From: Escherichia coli
GTDB taxonomy: Bacteria; Pseudomonadota; Gammaproteobacteria; Enterobacterales; Enterobacteriaceae
Direction: 5' to 3' (one strand)
Assembly (NCBI RefSeq): GCF_003334785.1
Contig: NZ_QOWV01000001.1
Length of the DNA stretch: 64,000 bases
Below the pieces are notes generated by a model. It did no database searches. It saw only the letters and a program-made list of their open reading frames with translations, and had not been told where the DNA came from. Positions within the stretch are counted from its first letter, which is position 1. Every line of letters starts with the position of its first letter. The position numbers and the translations under genes are program-made. Shown here piece after piece: positions 4,094 to 31,171 of this stretch.

Positions 4094-5092
<999 letters not shown>

Positions 5093-5422
5093 TTTCTTGC
5101 GTTATTTTCGGCACCTTTTATGTAGCGAAGGTGCCGGAATATATTCTCTTTTGTTACTTATTTCTATACCGTGCACAATATTTTTATCCCTCATATTTAT
5201 AGGGTAAATTACCTGTAAAGTAGTGTCTAATTACCCGCCTCGCAAACTCCAGTTTTCAAATATCTATTTCAGGTCAAAAGATTGAATTATTCACTGGAGA
5301 CGATTCGTAAATTCGCTGGATTTTTGACTAAAGTTTCTTTAGGATTTGTCTCATCGTATGATTAATTACACCAATCGTTCAACGTCTTGCTGATAAGTGA
5401 TGGCGATTATATGAGGTTAGCA

Positions 5423-5551
5423 ATGCCTTCTGGAAATCAGGAACCCCGCCGCGATCCTGAATTAAAACGTAAAGCCTGGCTGGCGGTTTTTCTTGGTTCT
5501 GCACTTTTCTGGGTGGTTGTCGCACTGCTGATTTGGAAAGTGTGGGGATAA
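5423..5551 (+). CDS. ymiA: Small membrane protein YmiA (alternative in-frame start at 5411)
   Basis: Not in track (<60 aa). ATG at 5423 has a GAGG Shine-Dalgarno 6 nt upstream; encodes MPSGNQEPRRDPELKRKAWLAVFLGSALFWVVVALLIWKVWG with one predicted TM helix; stop at 5549-5551. Confidence 0.6.
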   Translation: MPSGNQEPRRDPELKRKAWLAVFLGSALFWVVVALLIWKVWG

Positions 5552-5553
5552 CT

Positions 5554-5721
5554 ATGGTCGGTCAGGAGCAACTGGAGTCGTCACCATTATGCCAGCATAG
5601 TGACAATGAAACAGAAACGAAACGGGAATGTTCCGTCGTTATTCCAGACGACTGGCAACTAACATCGCAGCAGCAAGCCTTTATAGAACTGTTTGCTGAA
5701 GATGATCAGCCGAAACAATAA
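5554..5721 (+). CDS. yciX: Small protein YciX
   Basis: 55-codon ORF MVGQEQLESSPLCQHSDNETETKRECSVVIPDDWQLTSQQQAFIELFAEDDQPKQ; GGGGA SD just upstream; start lies 2 nt after the ymiA stop, consistent with translational coupling. Confidence 0.6.
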   Translation: MVGQEQLESSPLCQHSDNETETKRECSVVIPDDWQLTSQQQAFIELFAEDDQPKQ

Positions 5722-5834
5722 TTATCATCATTCTTATTACCCATTTTTAATGAATTAAAGGGCTTTTAATACACCGCAGCAATAACAGCTTGAGTTATCT
5801 CAACACAAAATAATAACCGTTAAGGGTGTAGCCT

Positions 5835-5930
5835 ATGATCAACACAAATATGAAATATTGGTCCTGGATGGGCGCGTTTTCTCTGTCGATGCTCTTCTGG
5901 GCCGAACTCCTCTGGATCATTACTCACTGA
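5835..5930 (+). CDS. 31-aa hydrophobic small protein (possibly the annotated small protein ymiC; unverified)
   Basis: ATG at 5835 preceded by AAGGGTG; encodes MINTNMKYWSWMGAFSLSMLFWAELLWIITH; stop TGA 5928-5930; followed immediately by a terminator hairpin. Track shows only an out-of-frame ORF at 5858..6040. Confidence 0.45.
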   Translation: MINTNMKYWSWMGAFSLSMLFWAELLWIITH

Positions 5931-5936
5931 TCCTTG

Positions 5937-5966
5937 ACCCCGCTGCGGCGGGGTTGTCATTTGCTT
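5937..5966 (+). terminator. Intrinsic terminator after the 31-aa ORF, upstream of acnA
   Basis: accccgc-tgcg-gcggggt hairpin followed by tgtcatttgcttt. Confidence 0.55.
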
Positions 5967-6093
5967 TGCCACAAGGTTTCTCCTCTTTTATCAATTTGGG
6001 TTGTTATCAAATCGTTACGCGATGTTTGTGTTATCTTTAATATTCACCCTGAAGAGAATCAGGGCTTCGCAACCCTGTCATTAAGGAGGAGCT

Positions 6094-8769
6094 ATGTCGT
6101 CAACCCTACGAGAAGCCAGTAAGGACACGTTGCAGGCCAAAGATAAAACTTACCACTACTACAGCCTGCCGCTTGCTGCTAAATCACTGGGCGATATCAC
6201 CCGTCTACCCAAGTCACTCAAAGTTTTGCTCGAAAACCTGCTGCGCTGGCAGGATGGTAACTCGGTTACCGAAGAGGATATCCACGCGCTGGCAGGATGG
6301 CTGAAAAATGCCCATGCTGACCGTGAAATTGCCTACCGCCCGGCAAGGGTGCTGATGCAGGACTTTACCGGCGTACCTGCCGTTGTTGATCTGGCGGCAA
6401 TGCGCGAAGCGGTTAAACGCCTCGGCGGCGATACTGCAAAGGTTAACCCGCTCTCACCGGTCGACCTGGTCATTGACCACTCGGTGACCGTCGATCGTTT
6501 TGGTGATGATGAGGCATTTGAAGAAAACGTACGCCTGGAAATGGAGCGCAACCACGAACGTTATGTGTTCCTGAAATGGGGAAAGCAAGCGTTCAGTCGG
6601 TTTAGCGTCGTGCCGCCAGGCACAGGCATTTGCCATCAGGTTAACCTCGAATATCTCGGCAAAGCAGTGTGGAGTGAATTGCAGGACGGTGAATGGATTG
6701 CTTATCCGGATACACTCGTTGGTACTGACTCGCACACCACCATGATCAACGGCCTTGGCGTGCTGGGGTGGGGCGTTGGTGGGATCGAAGCAGAAGCCGC
6801 AATGTTAGGCCAGCCGGTTTCCATGCTTATCCCGGATGTAGTGGGCTTCAAACTTACCGGAAAATTACGTGAAGGTATTACCGCCACAGACCTGGTTCTC
6901 ACTGTTACCCAAATGCTGCGCAAACATGGCGTGGTGGGGAAATTCGTCGAATTTTATGGTGATGGTCTGGATTCACTACCGTTGGCGGATCGCGCCACCA
7001 TTGCCAATATGTCGCCAGAATATGGTGCCACCTGTGGCTTCTTCCCAATCGATGCTGTAACCCTCGATTACATGCGTTTAAGCGGGCGCAGCGAAGATCA
7101 GGTCGAGTTGGTCGAAAAATATGCCAAAGCGCAGGGCATGTGGCGTAACCCGGGCGATGAACCAATTTTTACCAGTACGTTAGAACTGGATATGAATGAC
7201 GTTGAAGCGAGCCTGGCAGGGCCTAAACGCCCACAGGATCGCGTTGCACTGCCCGATGTACCAAAAGCATTTGCCGCCAGTAACGAACTGGAAGTGAATG
7301 CCACGCATAAAGATCGCCAGCCGGTCGATTATGTTATGAACGGACATCAGTATCAGTTACCTGATGGCGCTGTGGTCATTGCTGCGATAACCTCGTGCAC
7401 CAACACCTCTAACCCAAGTGTGCTGATGGCCGCAGGCTTGCTGGCGAAAAAAGCCGTAACTCTGGGCCTCAAGCGGCAACCATGGGTCAAAGCGTCGCTG
7501 GCACCGGGTTCGAAAGTCGTTTCTGATTATCTGGCAAAAGCGAAACTGACACCGTATCTCGACGAACTGGGGTTTAACCTTGTGGGATACGGTTGTACCA
7601 CCTGTATTGGTAACTCTGGGCCGCTGCCCGATCCTATCGAAACGGCAATCAAAAAAGGCGATTTAACCGTCGGTGCGGTGCTGTCCGGCAACCGTAACTT
7701 TGAAGGCCGTATCCATCCGCTGGTTAAAACTAACTGGCTGGCCTCGCCGCCGCTGGTGGTTGCCTATGCGCTGGCGGGAAATATGAATATCAACCTGGCT
7801 TCTGAGCCTATCGGCCATGATCGCAAAGGCGATCCGGTTTATCTGAAAGATATCTGGCCATCGGCACAAGAAATTGCCCGTGCGGTAGAACAAGTCTCCA
7901 CAGAAATGTTCCGCAAAGAGTACGCAGAAGTTTTTGAAGGCACAGCAGAGTGGAAGGGAATTAACGTCACACGATCCGATACCTACGGTTGGCAGGAGGA
8001 CTCAACCTATATTCGCTTATCGCCTTTCTTTGATGAAATGCAGGCAACACCAGCACCAGTGGAAGATATTCACGGTGCGCGGATCCTCGCAATGCTGGGG
8101 GATTCAGTCACCACTGACCATATCTCTCCGGCGGGCAGTATTAAGCCCGACAGCCCAGCGGGTCGATATCTACAAGGTCGGGGTGTTGAGCGAAAAGACT
8201 TTAACTCCTACGGTTCGCGGCGTGGTAACCATGAAGTGATGATGCGCGGCACCTTCGCCAATATTCGCATCCGTAATGAAATGGTGCCTGGCGTTGAAGG
8301 GGGGATGACGCGGCATTTACCTGACAGCGACGTAGTCTCTATTTATGATGCTGCGATGCGCTATAAGCAGGAGCAAACGCCGCTGGCGGTGATTGCCGGG
8401 AAAGAGTATGGATCAGGCTCCAGTCGTGACTGGGCGGCAAAAGGTCCGCGTCTGCTTGGTATTCGTGTGGTGATTGCCGAATCGTTTGAACGAATTCACC
8501 GTTCGAATTTAATTGGCATGGGCATCCTGCCGCTGGAATTTCCGCAAGGCGTAACGCGTAAAACGTTAGGGCTAACCGGGGAAGAGAAGATTGATATTGG
8601 CGATCTGCAAAACCTACAACCCGGCGCGACGGTTCCGGTGACGCTTACGCGCGCGGATGGTAGCCAGGAAGTCGTACCCTGCCGTTGTCGTATCGACACC
8701 GCGACGGAGTTGACCTACTACCAGAACGACGGCATTTTGCATTATGTCATTCGTAATATGTTGAAGTAA
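6094..8769 (+). CDS. acnA: Aconitate hydratase A
   Basis: 891-aa [33 protein letters not shown]...; strong SD (taaggagg) upstream; aconitase Fe-S cluster cysteines present. Confidence 0.97.
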
Positions 8770-28064: not shown

Positions 28065-29450
28065 TTACGTTTCACTCACCGGCGTTCTGTCACCATCATA
28101 CAACGGCACTTTGCGATAGCGGCGGATCAGATACCATAAATATGCGCCGCCTAACGAAGCCCATACCAGACCGAGTGTCAGTGACGTTGACTCGAGGTTA
28201 ACCCACAGCACACCCACCGTCAGCGCGCCAACCAGCGGCATCAGCAAATAGTGGAAGTGATCCTTCCAGCTTTTATTCATTCCTTTACGCCGCCAGAAAT
28301 GATTAAACACCGACAGATTCACGAAGGTAAACGCCACCAGAGCACCGAAGTTAATTAACGCTGTGGCGGTAACTAAATCGAAGAACAGCGCCGACAACGC
28401 GACAATCCCGACCATAATGACGTTGAGTGCCGGAGTCCGCCATTTTGGGTGCACATAGCCAAACACGCGCTCCGGAAACACATTGTCACGCCCCATCACA
28501 TACAGCAGACGCGACACGCTGGCATGTGAAGCCAGGCCAGAGGCTAACGTGTTCACAAACGTGGTGCAGAGGAAAATCGACTGGAAGAGCTTGCCGCCGA
28601 CGTACAGCGCAATTTCAGGCAGTGCGGCATCCGGATCTTTAAAGCGGCTGATATCGGGAAAGAACAGCTGCATAAAGAACGACGCCGCGATAAAGATAAC
28701 GCCACCGTAGACCGCCGTCAGGAAGATGGCTTTCGGGATCACGCGTGCGGCGTCCGGCGTCTCTTCCGAAAGCGTGGTCACCGCATCGAAACCGAGGAAG
28801 GAGAAACAGACAATCGTCGCCCCGGTAATAATCGGGATCAGGTGCGCGTTCTCGCTGATAAACGGCTGAAGTGACCAGACGGTGCCAACGCCTTCTCCTT
28901 TATGCAGTCCCTGAACTACCAGGAAGATAAACACCACCATGATGGAGATTTGCACCAGTACAAACAGGGTATTGAAGTTAGCGACCAGGTTGACGCTCTT
29001 CAGATTCGCGGCGGTTAAAATGGCGACGAAGGTTACCACCCACACCCACGGCGGCACTTCCGGGAAGAGGGCGGAGAGATAGATTTTCGCCAACAAGACG
29101 TTAATCATCGGCAAAAAGAGATAATCCAGCAGCGATGACCAGCCGACCATAAATCCGACGTGCGGGTTAATCGACTTTTGCGCGTAGGTATAGGCCGAAC
29201 CGGCCTCCGGAAACTGGCGAACCAGTTTGCCGTAGCTGATAGCGGTAAACAGCACACCCGCCAGCGCCAGCAAATAGGACGCCGGAACGTGACCGTCGCT
29301 AATGCCGGAGACAATACCAAAAGTATCAAATACGGTCATCGGCGTGAGATAGGCCAGACCCATCATCACCACCTGCCACAATTTCAGTGATTTTCGCAGA
29401 CGGGTTTTGCCGGGTTGCGCAGCAATATTCAGTGGTGAATTAATAGCCAT
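28065..29450 (-). CDS. puuP: Putrescine importer PuuP (APC family)
   Basis: 461-aa protein starting [35 protein letters not shown] (track ORF extended 18 codons). Confidence 0.95.
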
Positions 29451-29752
29451 AATTGCTGCCTCCCCTGCGTAATAAGGTTTGCGGTCGTGTCGACCTGAAA
29501 TCAAACCTGTTTAGCAAGGGAAGCAAAGGGGGCGGAGTCCAGTCAGTAGCAGGAGGGGCGCATACGCAGCCTCCCTCGCCATGCGGGGATTTAATCATCG
29601 GCATCATCTCATTTCCTCGTCACAGTCTTAATCGTTAACGGAAGCCCGTTGCCGCCCGCGCTCCATAACGCGACATCCGGGAAATGTCTGGATTACCAGC
29701 AAATGTCAGGCCTGGCTCCGCTCAGGCCGATGAAACAACCCCGCAAGGGGTA

Positions 29753-31171
29753 TTACGCGTTTTTCAACATCCACTCAATTTCTGTTTCTGTGATGAGGCG
29801 CTCAAACTGCAACAGCTCATCATTTTTACAGGCGTGATAGACATGGCAGAAGCGTTCGCCTAAATAGCGGCGCAGGTGATCATTCTCGATAAACTCACCC
29901 AGGGCATCGCTCTGGCGAATCGGAAAGGGTAAGCCTTCCTGTTCCAGCCCGTTGCCTTCGACTTCTTCCTGCAACGGCAGCTCGTTATCAAGGCCATGCA
30001 AAATACCGGCAAAAATCGCTGCCATCACCAGATATGGGTTGGCATCGGCACCCGCCACGCGATATTCCACGCGGTGATTATGACGGTCGCCGCACGGAAT
30101 ACGCAGGGCGACGGTGCGGTTGTTATGGCCCCACGACGCCTGCGTCGGCACATACATTCCCGGCTGGAAGCGGCGATACGAGTTCACGTTTGGTGCCAGC
30201 AACGCCATCGACGACGGCATCAGGTCAATCATCCCGGCGAGCATCTTTTTCAGCAGCGGCGAATCTTCGCCTTCCGCGTCAGAAAGCACGTTCTCGCCAC
30301 GATTATTTTGCATACTGATATGGATATGCATTCCGCTGCCCGCGTGCTCTTCATACGGCTTCGCCATAAAAGTGGCGTGCATCTTATGCTTTTCTGCCAT
30401 CAGACGCACCAGGCGTTTTAGTGCCAGCGCATCATCGCAGGCTTCCAGCACGTTATCAGTATGGTAAAGGTTGATTTCAAACTGACCCGGCGAGGCCTCA
30501 GCGACCGCGCCATCTGCCGGAATCAGCTGTAACTGCGCCAGTTCATCAATATCATTGAGCACGTCGGCGAAGTGGTTGAGGTTATCAACGGAGTAAACCT
30601 GGCTTTGTGTATTGCGGTCATCGGTGCCAGGCGCGCAGGGCGGTTGCAGATACCCTTCAGCGTCGCGCTGGCGATCCAGTAAATAGAACTCCAGCTCTAC
30701 CGCTACGACCGGGAACAATCCGCGCTGGCGCAGCTGCTGCCACAGGCGGTTAAGAACGTTCCGCGGCTCAACGTCAAAGGGAGCGCCATCTTCATCGACC
30801 ATGGTCAGGAGCATCTGACCGATAAACTCTGGATCGGCGGCAGAAGGAGTTAAGGAACCGAGAACAGGAACACAGGTACGATCCGGCTCGCCCATTTCCT
30901 GACCCAGACCTGCTTCTTCTACTACGTTGCCCAGAATATCCATTGCAAATACCGAGGCCGGGAAATAACACCCTTTCTCGAGCTTCTTCAGGCTTGAAAC
31001 AGGAATACGCTTTCCACGGAAGCAACCATTTAAATCGGTAAGTAAAACATCAACATATTGCGTATTCGGGTAGCGCTCCAGGTAGCGTTTCACTTCCTGC
31101 GTAAAGGCGCTACCCCGCCTCTCTTCTGACTGCTGAACAAAGTTCTCTACTTCAACGATATTGGTTTCCAT
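29753..31171 (-). CDS. puuA: Gamma-glutamylputrescine synthetase
   Basis: 472-aa glutamine-synthetase-family protein starting METNIVEVENFVQQSEERRG (track ORF extended 26 codons). Confidence 0.95.
   Translation of the reverse strand: METNIVEVENFVQQSEERRGSAFTQEVKRYLERYPNTQYVDVLLTDLNGCFRGKRIPVSSLKKLEKGCYFPASVFAMDILGNVVEEAGLGQEMGEPDRTCVPVLGSLTPSAADPEFIGQMLLTMVDEDGAPFDVEPRNVLNRLWQQLRQRGLFPVVAVELEFYLLDRQRDAEGYLQPPCAPGTDDRNTQSQVYSVDNLNHFADVLNDIDELAQLQLIPADGAVAEASPGQFEINLYHTDNVLEACDDALALKRLVRLMAEKHKMHATFMAKPYEEHAGSGMHIHISMQNNRGENVLSDAEGEDSPLLKKMLAGMIDLMPSSMALLAPNVNSYRRFQPGMYVPTQASWGHNNRTVALRIPCGDRHNHRVEYRVAGADANPYLVMAAIFAGILHGLDNELPLQEEVEGNGLEQEGLPFPIRQSDALGEFIENDHLRRYLGERFCHVYHACKNDELLQFERLITETEIEWMLKNA

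Follow-up and report, generated by a model that had tools for sequence, protein, structure and literature searches.

How is puuP, which encodes the main high-affinity putrescine importer of Escherichia coli, controlled by the spacer that separates it from puuA? The spacer was studied in a stretch of 64,000 nucleotides of E. coli DNA (the window; NCBI RefSeq assembly GCF_003334785.1, contig NZ_QOWV01000001.1), in which both genes lie on the minus strand. The sequence and the RefSeq annotation mapped onto the window place the puuA stop codon TAA at 29753-29755 and the puuP start codon ATG at 29448-29450, the latter also from tblastn of PuuP against related loci. Consequently, the gap spans exactly 29451-29752, which agrees with the 302 bp proposed in a sequence-only reading of this DNA. 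That reading described two GC hairpins immediately after the puuA stop codon, followed by a long untranslated leader for puuP, and took this arrangement to be consistent with partial termination and an internal puuP promoter or attenuator. In the literature found, control of the puu genes is placed at the level of transcription and sigma factors (PuuR, ArcA, FNR, and sigma-S), and none of these studies gives the ymjE-puuP leader the regulatory role considered here. The spacer was compared across 80 loci encoding PuuA relatives, taking one genome per species; a PuuP-family gene is found downstream of puuA in nearly all of them. The anatomy that emerges from these sequences suggests translational control through Shine-Dalgarno (SD) sequestration and coupling to an upstream open reading frame (uORF), rather than partial termination combined with a promoter. 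We regard it as somewhat probable that the spacer is a composite translational control leader in which puuP is coupled to the small gene ymjE, and in which initiation at ymjE is set by a folded leader RNA.

Both of the predicted hairpins are present on the minus strand where they had been placed, and the first of them is weak. Hairpin 1 (29738-29751, minus strand), examined by terminator scan, folding, and recurrence, begins one base past the puuA stop codon and has the sequence ACCCC-UUGC-GGGGU, followed by UGUUUCAU. Similar to an intrinsic terminator, it is a GC stem with a tetraloop located right after a stop codon and followed by a U-rich stretch. In contrast to an intrinsic terminator, it contains only five base pairs, with a free energy of -7.9 kcal/mol that 16 of 200 shuffles match (z = -1.6), its U-run is interrupted, and it does not rise above chance. 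A terminator scan at lax settings flags the hairpin with the tail TGTTTCATCG, as one of two such sites in the region compared with 1.3 expected. Taken alone, hairpin 1 is a weak terminator-like stem that is no better than chance. A point in its favor is that a GC hairpin of unrelated sequence is found directly after the puuA stop codon in most other genera. Hairpin 1 may contribute some termination, or it may protect a processed 3' end of puuA. The Term-seq files of Adams et al. (PMC7815308) that were searched list no 3' end within the spacer; for this locus they report only an antisense one, inside puuA.

These properties bear on the explanation closest to the initial description, in which both GC hairpins act in tandem to terminate part of the puuA transcripts, with puuP expressed by read-through and from an internal promoter, behind a passive untranslated leader. 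The scan result and the recurrence of a hairpin after puuA in other genera speak for this explanation. Hairpin 2 speaks against it, as this hairpin lacks any U-tract, its stem covaries around a conserved loop, and it is part of a larger fold. Hairpin 2 (29709-29728, minus strand; GGCCUG-AGCGGAGC-CAGGCC) folds with -13.1 kcal/mol (z = -2.2; 4 of 200 shuffles are equally good). Its arms covary between genera and its loop, UGAGCGGAGCC, which contains GGA, is kept. Rather than a terminator, hairpin 2 is stem P1 of an approximately 130-nt, three-stem RNA that is conserved in Enterobacteriaceae and Erwiniaceae.

The best-conserved part of the spacer is the approximately 130 nt extending from hairpin 1 to the ymjE start, and RNAalifold applied to the alignment of this leader returns three stems, P1, P2, and P3. 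P2 (29687-29700, minus strand) has the sequence GCUGG-UAAU-CCAGA, with a middle pair that alternates between A-U (15 sequences) and U-A (13 sequences). P3 (29645-29681, minus strand), defined by RNAalifold and covariation, combines CCCG/CGGG with GUCGC/GCGGC and carries the loop GUUAUGGAGCGCGG, which is of the A-N-GGA type. A covariance model (R1) was built from 20 sequences and searched with cmsearch. The model matches the window once, at 29733-29590 (152 bits), which defines a structured leader RNA at 29590-29733 (minus strand) that includes the three stems, a linker, and the ribosome binding site and start of ymjE. The model scores 125-172 bits in 37 other loci and recovers all of the Enterobacteriaceae loci; it also detects Franconibacter (38 bits, E = 2e-7), Pantoea (31 bits, E = 1.5e-5), and, weakly, Erwinia. 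In the R1 alignment 96% of the cells are paired and 12 of the 22 pairs show compensatory changes. None of 500 shuffled alignments reaches any of these measures, and slid controls yield only 2-6 compensatory pairs. An independent MAFFT alignment concurs, with three compensatory pairs in P1. In terms of folding energy, the complete leader does not stand out (z = -1.6). A REP element was ruled out, as the 502-nt region examined occurs only once in an E. coli genome (median) and R1 matches the 64-kb window a single time.

Searches against Rfam 15 of the window (with the spacer at a permissive E-value) and of eight puuA-puuP loci from other species returned no family at the gathering threshold; the best score was 19.6 bits for RAGATH-36, compared with a gathering score of 70. 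The leader is therefore a conserved structured RNA that is now defined and is absent from Rfam. In Pantoea and Erwinia the spacer is short and contains no uORF, and the leader lies directly before the puuP SD and ATG. Consequently, the leader appears to act on whichever start codon comes next. Across the loci compared, the uORF appears to be a module that is present in some lineages and missing from others, and its absence from Pantoea, Erwinia, and some Serratia loci indicates that it is dispensable in some lineages. The possibility that the spacer RNA is a small RNA derived from the 3' untranslated region of puuA was set aside, since there is no terminator after P3 and the Pantoea leader abuts the puuP start.

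The description of the region as a long untranslated leader does not hold, as more than half of it is ymjE, an annotated and translated gene whose protein has been detected and which overlaps puuP by 11 nt. The gene (29440-29607, minus strand; RefSeq; Pfam PF23692; K-12 identifier b4742; "YmjE family protein") has an annotated start at 29604, giving 54 amino acids, and an in-frame ATG at 29607, giving 55. Its stop codon, TAA, lies 11 nt inside puuP. The ymjE SD, GAGGAAA (29612-29618, minus strand), lies upstream of the tandem start codons, 4 nt from the ATG at 29607 and 7 nt from the annotated one at 29604, and ACGAGG is invariant in alignments A1, A2, and A5. YmjE matches PF23692 over residues 1-54 (hmmscan, E = 1e-43), and a scan of YmjE against NCBIfam returned no family. 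Immunoblots have revealed the tagged protein, and a ribosome-profiling screen also scored ymjE as positive (PMC6001520); Weaver et al. place YmjE among the least abundant small proteins in LB. That the leader is translated is a further argument against tandem terminators followed by a passive leader.

The reading frame is conserved well beyond Escherichia. An ATG-started ORF of 55-78 codons that ends approximately 10 nt into the transporter gene is found in the spacer of approximately 65 of the 80 loci, in at least 14 genera. These ORFs occur in Escherichia, Klebsiella, Raoultella, Enterobacter, Citrobacter, Cedecea, Buttiauxella, and Pluralibacter, as well as in Trabulsiella, Franconibacter, Hafnia, Serratia, Rouxiella, Rahnella, and Ewingella. 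Upstream of puuP, every locus with a long spacer keeps the ymjE frame open over 57-110 codons, compared with 1-69 codons in the other two frames. The first 13 or so codons of the uORF follow the pattern MMQMFKYPHGEGG (MMPMIKSPHGEGG in E. coli). Variation in these codons falls mainly on the third position (entropy 4.9, 6.6, and 11.8 from the first to the third), and the share of synonymous changes is 32%, versus 8% and 26% in the shifted frames. Approximately 12 N-terminal residues are conserved at the level of the peptide; the PPP of E. coli YmjE is lineage-specific. The middle of the uORF varies in length and sequence, and its 3' half has almost no codon periodicity (entropy 28.0, 27.0, and 30.6), which suggests that most of the YmjE peptide is probably unimportant.

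Two additional pairings may connect the three-stem RNA to the start of ymjE. The segment CAUUUCC (29680-29686, minus strand), which lies between P2 and P3, is a candidate anti-SD strand for the ymjE SD region GGAAAUG; this pairing appears in the minimum free energy (MFE) folds of most species, with 93% of cells paired across 28 species and only one compensatory change. Similarly, the segment GCAUCAU located 5' of P1 (UCAUC in Escherichia, where only 5 bp can form) is complementary to the tandem start codons AUGAUGC. This pairing, termed P0, is also found in the MFE folds of most species and is 93% paired across 28 species, with no compensatory pairs. Compensatory changes are few in both cases because both pairings are so strongly conserved, and from the folds both are plausible. 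Since CAUUUCC shares two bases with the base of P3, the P3 stem and the anti-SD helix could form as alternative structures.

A switch of this kind raises the question of whether the three-stem RNA is a riboswitch that binds putrescine, gamma-glutamyl-putrescine, or GABA and chooses between P3 and the CAUUUCC:GGAAAUG helix. The leader does have a multi-stem fold with covariation and highly conserved unpaired loops and junctions, as is typical of riboswitches, and the 2-nt overlap between the base of P3 and the anti-SD strand would permit switching. Furthermore, it is always tied to one transporter gene and lies directly before a ribosome binding site, including in Pantoea, where there is no uORF. 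These features are weighed against a narrow distribution (Enterobacteriaceae and Erwiniaceae, with different leaders in Serratia, Hafnia, and Rahnella), modest thermodynamic support, and repeated GGA loops that are more like sites for a protein or the ribosome. In addition, Rfam 15 places neither the window nor the loci from other species in a described riboswitch class. We consider a riboswitch to be highly improbable, the least likely of the explanations discussed here.

GGA is present in the P1 loop of 42 of 43 aligned leaders, in the P3 loop of all 43, and in the SD region of 41, where the ymjE SD is GAGGAAA. The flanks of GGA in the loops are variable and of the A-N-GGA type. Leaders of the puuP type in Serratia, which are otherwise different, contain the hairpin GGCG-UACAGGA-CGCC right before the SD GAGGAAA. 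The GGA loops thus have the look of CsrA binding sites or of SD mimics. Leaders under CsrA control are recognized by at least two GGA motifs that lie in hairpin loops and overlap the SD, and that is the arrangement found here. As in such leaders (e.g. glgC; PMC7652899), several GGA motifs are present, one of them within the SD and two exposed by hairpin loops; in contrast to them, the start codon concerned at ymjE belongs to the uORF and not to the main gene.

It is therefore conceivable that the three-stem leader is a CsrA operator, in which CsrA dimers would bind GGA in the P1 and P3 loops and in the SD and so repress or activate translation of ymjE and thus of puuP. The near-invariant loop motifs with their A-N-GGA flanks, the additional motif in the SD, and the Serratia hairpin directly before the SD all point in this direction. 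In the portion of PMC5694010 and its supplement drawn on here, the values for puuA in a csrA mutant are somewhat higher both for ribosome footprints (log2 0.84) and for RNA (log2 0.59). The CLIP-seq data in the same portion of that study list no peak for puuA, which counts against CsrA; the operon is barely expressed under the CLIP conditions. Moreover, the P1 loop is conserved over 11 nt, which is beyond what CsrA needs, and the GGAG loops could equally well be SD mimics. Control by CsrA is a credible but somewhat unlikely possibility. It is compatible with the coupling of puuP to ymjE, as it names only the input. Pairings between the GGAG loops, or between these loops and the uORF, were dropped, as by eye they are not conserved.

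A very stable structure is found at the other end of the spacer. The puuP SD, GGGGAGG (29459-29465, minus strand), identified from the sequence and from a G-run that is conserved 6-9 nt before the ATG, is contained in a stem-loop (29458-29524, minus strand; folding, covariation) with an inner helix AGGUUUG/CAAACCU. The C-rich 5' arm, GCUUCCCUUGC (29524-29514), corresponds to the ymjE codons for LLPLL, and it pairs with GCAGGGGAGGC (29468-29458), which holds the SD. This stem-loop folds with -35.3 kcal/mol (z = -5.3), and none of 200 shuffles is equally good. When 31 species of Enterobacteriaceae were folded, every one of them had an equivalent stem as its MFE structure. The 89-nt region of the SD stem aligns without gaps, and six of its 12 consensus pairs are compensatory, as in CCUCCC/GGGAGG versus CCCCC/GGGGG. 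Analogous stems occur in Serratia, Rahnella, Rouxiella, Hafnia, and Franconibacter, where GUUUCCCC or UUUUCCCU is paired with GGGGGGG or GGGAGGG. What looks like peptide conservation toward the C-terminus of YmjE (TPLLSRF, RPQT, and GG) is that of these RNA strands and the SD.

This overlap of peptide and RNA conservation bears on whether YmjE instead works in trans, e.g. as a partner or regulator of PuuP, with the gene overlap serving co-expression and the RNA structures serving mRNA stability. The protein is detectable, its N-terminal region of approximately 12 residues is conserved as a peptide, and a Pfam family exists; VanOrsdel et al. (PMC6001520) also raised a function possibly related to the adjacent genes. 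Past residue 13 or so, however, both sequence and length drift (55-78 amino acids, and 20 in YoeI, discussed below) with weak codon periodicity, and the blocks that are conserved in the 3' half fall on RNA stems and on the puuP SD. A hydrophobic segment is absent from YmjE, and Pantoea and Erwinia retain the leader and PuuP without ymjE. A function in trans is consequently very unlikely.

Several features of a coupled uORF are present at ymjE, in that it is translated according to the literature, the overlap of its stop codon with the puuP start is conserved, and the puuP SD pairs with a strand inside the uORF. These features suggest the following sequence of events. The short and weak hairpin 1 would end or protect the puuA part of the message. 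The P1-P3 RNA, together with segments complementary to the ymjE SD, would set the frequency of initiation at ymjE, and in most genera GCAUCAU may also pair with the ymjE start codons AUGAUGC. The puuP SD would be held in a stable stem by a strand from within ymjE. Ribosomes that translate ymjE would melt this stem and terminate atop the puuP start, so that puuP would be translated mainly by coupling. The sequences show that the structures are conserved and covary and that the reading frame and its overlap with puuP are retained; from this we infer the coupling itself, the direction of control, and an input signal. Candidates for the signal include CsrA bound to the GGA loops, polyamine-dependent stalling on the N-terminal peptide, and a small ligand.

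Several known systems offer precedents. In ermCL-ermC and secM-secA, the downstream SD is held in a stem with a strand of the upstream ORF, and ribosomes translating that ORF open the stem. The SD of puuP is likewise paired with a strand inside the upstream ORF. In contrast to ymjE-puuP, these two systems need a defined arrest sequence and a signal (a macrolide or secretion). Due to the overlap of the ymjE stop with the puuP start, plain termination-reinitiation coupling may suffice at this locus. Translated uORFs are also found before other E. coli genes for polyamine transport or synthesis, namely mdtU-mdtJI and speFL-speF-potE. Adams et al. (PMC7815308) reported that the mdtU uORF is required for induction of mdtJI by spermidine, and predicted, in analogy with speFL, that part of mdtU pairs with the mdtJ ribosome binding site. 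A distinction is that mdtU stops 106 nt before mdtJ, acts with Rho, and is conserved at its C-terminus, whereas ymjE overlaps puuP, has its conserved part at the N-terminus, and follows a distinct RNA of three stems.

How the leader is transcribed is relevant to the promoter that had been proposed within the spacer. In Escherichia only about 20 nt separate the puuA stop codon from the structured leader, so that read-through from the puuA promoter is the simplest way for it to be transcribed, which fits the view of puuAP as an operon. A scan of the gene strand between 29000 and 30200 found no sigma-70 promoter site, which speaks against an internal promoter of that type. RegulonDB does list a sigma-54 promoter, puuPp, with the sequence TGGAGC-N5-CGGCA; its position, deduced from the cloning primers in the supplement of PMC7045595, is 29650-29665 (minus strand), within the loop and 3' arm of P3. 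The GG/GC spacing is present, with four mismatches to TGGCAC-N5-TTGCW. The authors who tested puuPp reported 1-3 mismatches per element and built a puuPp-gfp fusion that gave some signal; fluorescence from the tested promoters was 17-56-fold below that of argTp, with the exception of argTp itself and glnAp2.

The inclusion of puuP in the sigma-54 list, the signal from the fusion, and a reported ChIP site for AtoC, an activator of sigma-54 promoters, support the existence of an internal promoter. The AtoC site, GCCATGCGGGGATTTAATCA (29578-29597, plus strand), was taken from Table 5 of PMC3118216, located in the window sequence, and lies in ymjE codons 3-9. Further support comes from loci of the PlaP type in Serratia and Rahnella, where a strong terminator precedes the leader, so that a separate promoter must exist there. 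Against these observations, the match at puuPp is poor, and matches with three mismatches to the sigma-54 consensus are not enriched across the whole window (310 versus 342 expected). The -12 GC of puuPp is AC in 10 of 28 species, a change that gives U-A in place of U-G in P3. A sigma-54 promoter was consequently rejected as the cause of the conservation of this block. A promoter inside a conserved stem-loop would also cut the structure off the message: should puuPp fire, as it may in E. coli itself, the resulting mRNA would lack P1-P3 and the anti-SD strand. Of the original proposal, the spacer as a regulatory leader of puuP and a weak terminator-like hairpin after puuA both stand, and the internal promoter is backed by its RegulonDB entry and weakened by its poor and variable match. 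As a whole, tandem partial termination with a passive leader is clearly unlikely, and composite translational control of puuP through ymjE remains the preferred explanation.

A related arrangement is found at a second putrescine importer gene of E. coli. The plaP gene is 63% identical to puuP, and yoeI, which encodes 20 amino acids (MGQFFAYATVITVKENDHVA), lies upstream with its stop codon 11 nt inside plaP. Similar to ymjE-puuP, therefore, a small translated ORF ends 11 nt into a paralogous importer gene, and the N-terminus of YoeI, MGQFF, is related to MMQMF/MMPMI. In contrast to ymjE-puuP, the uORF is a mere 20 codons long, the leader RNA before it (AGAGGCCGG...CCGGAUAGAUA) bears no relation to P1-P3, and the SD of E. 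coli plaP is not strongly sequestered. A second set of loci, from Serratia, Rahnella, Rouxiella, Ewingella, and Chimaeribacter, has the plaP-type leader AGAGGCCGG...CCGGAUAGAUA. Their uORFs, of 63-78 codons, start with MGQ(F/Y)FKPVPVPAG, compared with MMQMFKYP in the puuP type, which gives the shared pattern M-x-Q-x-F-K-(x)-P. The PlaP-type loci of Serratia and Rahnella have long uORFs with stems that sequester the SD.

It is tempting to view ymjE-puuP and yoeI-plaP as a family that senses intracellular putrescine or polyamine, by stalling of the nascent peptide at M-x-Q-x-F-K-x-P or by a leader that binds a metabolite, although this is speculative and rather unlikely. If it were so, synthesis of the importers would be tuned to the polyamine load of the cell, and these leaders would be the third and fourth polyamine-responsive leaders of E. 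coli after speFL and mdtU, or the first putrescine-responsive RNA. More broadly, the comparison suggests that enterobacterial polyamine transporters are generally under the control of translated leaders, alongside speFL and mdtU. The gene ymjE and the type of mechanism were already known; as far as found, the role proposed for ymjE, the three-stem RNA, the SD stem, and the kinship with yoeI-plaP have not been described. YmjE and YoeI, which have been orphan small proteins, gain a concrete and testable role as coupling uORFs.

Studies of the two importers in another context also bear on these uORFs. One class of CDI toxins uses PuuP and PlaP as receptors for entry (PMC11630599). Halvorsen et al., in that work, reported full recovery of PlaP-dependent toxin sensitivity with a plasmid carrying yoeI-plaP but not with plaP alone, which suggests that yoeI affects the expression of PlaP. 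The uORFs are cut in plasmid or chromosomal constructs that begin with the ATG of puuP, as well as in Keio-type deletions of either importer gene, and such strains may consequently misreport expression.

Two comparison loci (numbered in their own coordinates) carry an insert of approximately 1.7-2.0 kb between puuA and the uORF-transporter unit, L037 from Hafnia paralvei (4420-6446) and L076 from Ewingella americana. In both loci the transporter still has its uORF, the overlap, and a leader-like RNA beside it, which shows that these elements move together with puuP/plaP rather than with puuA. Insertions are also found in several Enterobacter-like species, where long REP-like palindromes (L023:4420-4519, L025:4420-4516, L026:4420-4518, and L071:4420-4497; -36 to -55 kcal/mol) separate the conserved leader from the puuA stop, replacing the short hairpin 1. 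The three-stem leader and the uORF are both absent from loci with short puuA-puuP spacers of 108-153 nt, found in Serratia (L043, L046, L048-L050, L058) and Erwinia (L040). Several Serratia species possess a short-spacer locus plus a second locus with a long MGQFF uORF.

The paralogous yoeI-plaP locus of E. coli has an overlap geometry identical to that of ymjE-puuP. The 20-amino acid gene yoeI (L083:4053-4115, equivalent to NC_000913.3 2087052-2087114, minus strand) lies 5' of plaP and its stop is located 11 nt within plaP, while the N-termini of the two small proteins are related (MGQFF in YoeI). Previous work demonstrated that plaP alone complements less well than a yoeI-plaP construct (PMC11630599). 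A match to the Rfam sRNA family STnc240 (L083:4210-4284, minus strand; 68 bits versus a gathering score of 55) corresponds to the yeeY terminator region, directly upstream of the yoeI-plaP leader.

E. coli YmjE contains a Pro-Pro-Pro motif (CCG CCC CCU; window 29527-29535, minus strand) just 5' of the anti-SD arm, the C-rich strand that pairs with the puuP SD. An EF-P-dependent pause at this motif would keep the puuP SD stem open. The motif is limited to Escherichia, with LTPLLS found in other genera. Additionally, a two-codon mini-ORF, AUG AGA UGA (window 29605-29611, minus strand), overlaps the tandem ymjE start codons, and PlaP-type leaders have a start-stop AUG UAA at the equivalent position. 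The GAGG core of the ymjE SD lies 3 nt upstream of the mini-ORF start. The published ChIP-positive site of AtoC at puuP, GCCATGCGGGGATTTAATCA (window 29578-29597, plus strand; PMC3118216), falls within ymjE codons 3-9 and is downstream, not upstream, of the RegulonDB sigma-54 promoter.

A search of 5,426 complete E. coli genomes using window 29351-29852 as the query identified the puuA-ymjE-puuP junction in 4,375 (81%), with the junction absent from about a fifth. Six further matching places are on plasmids.
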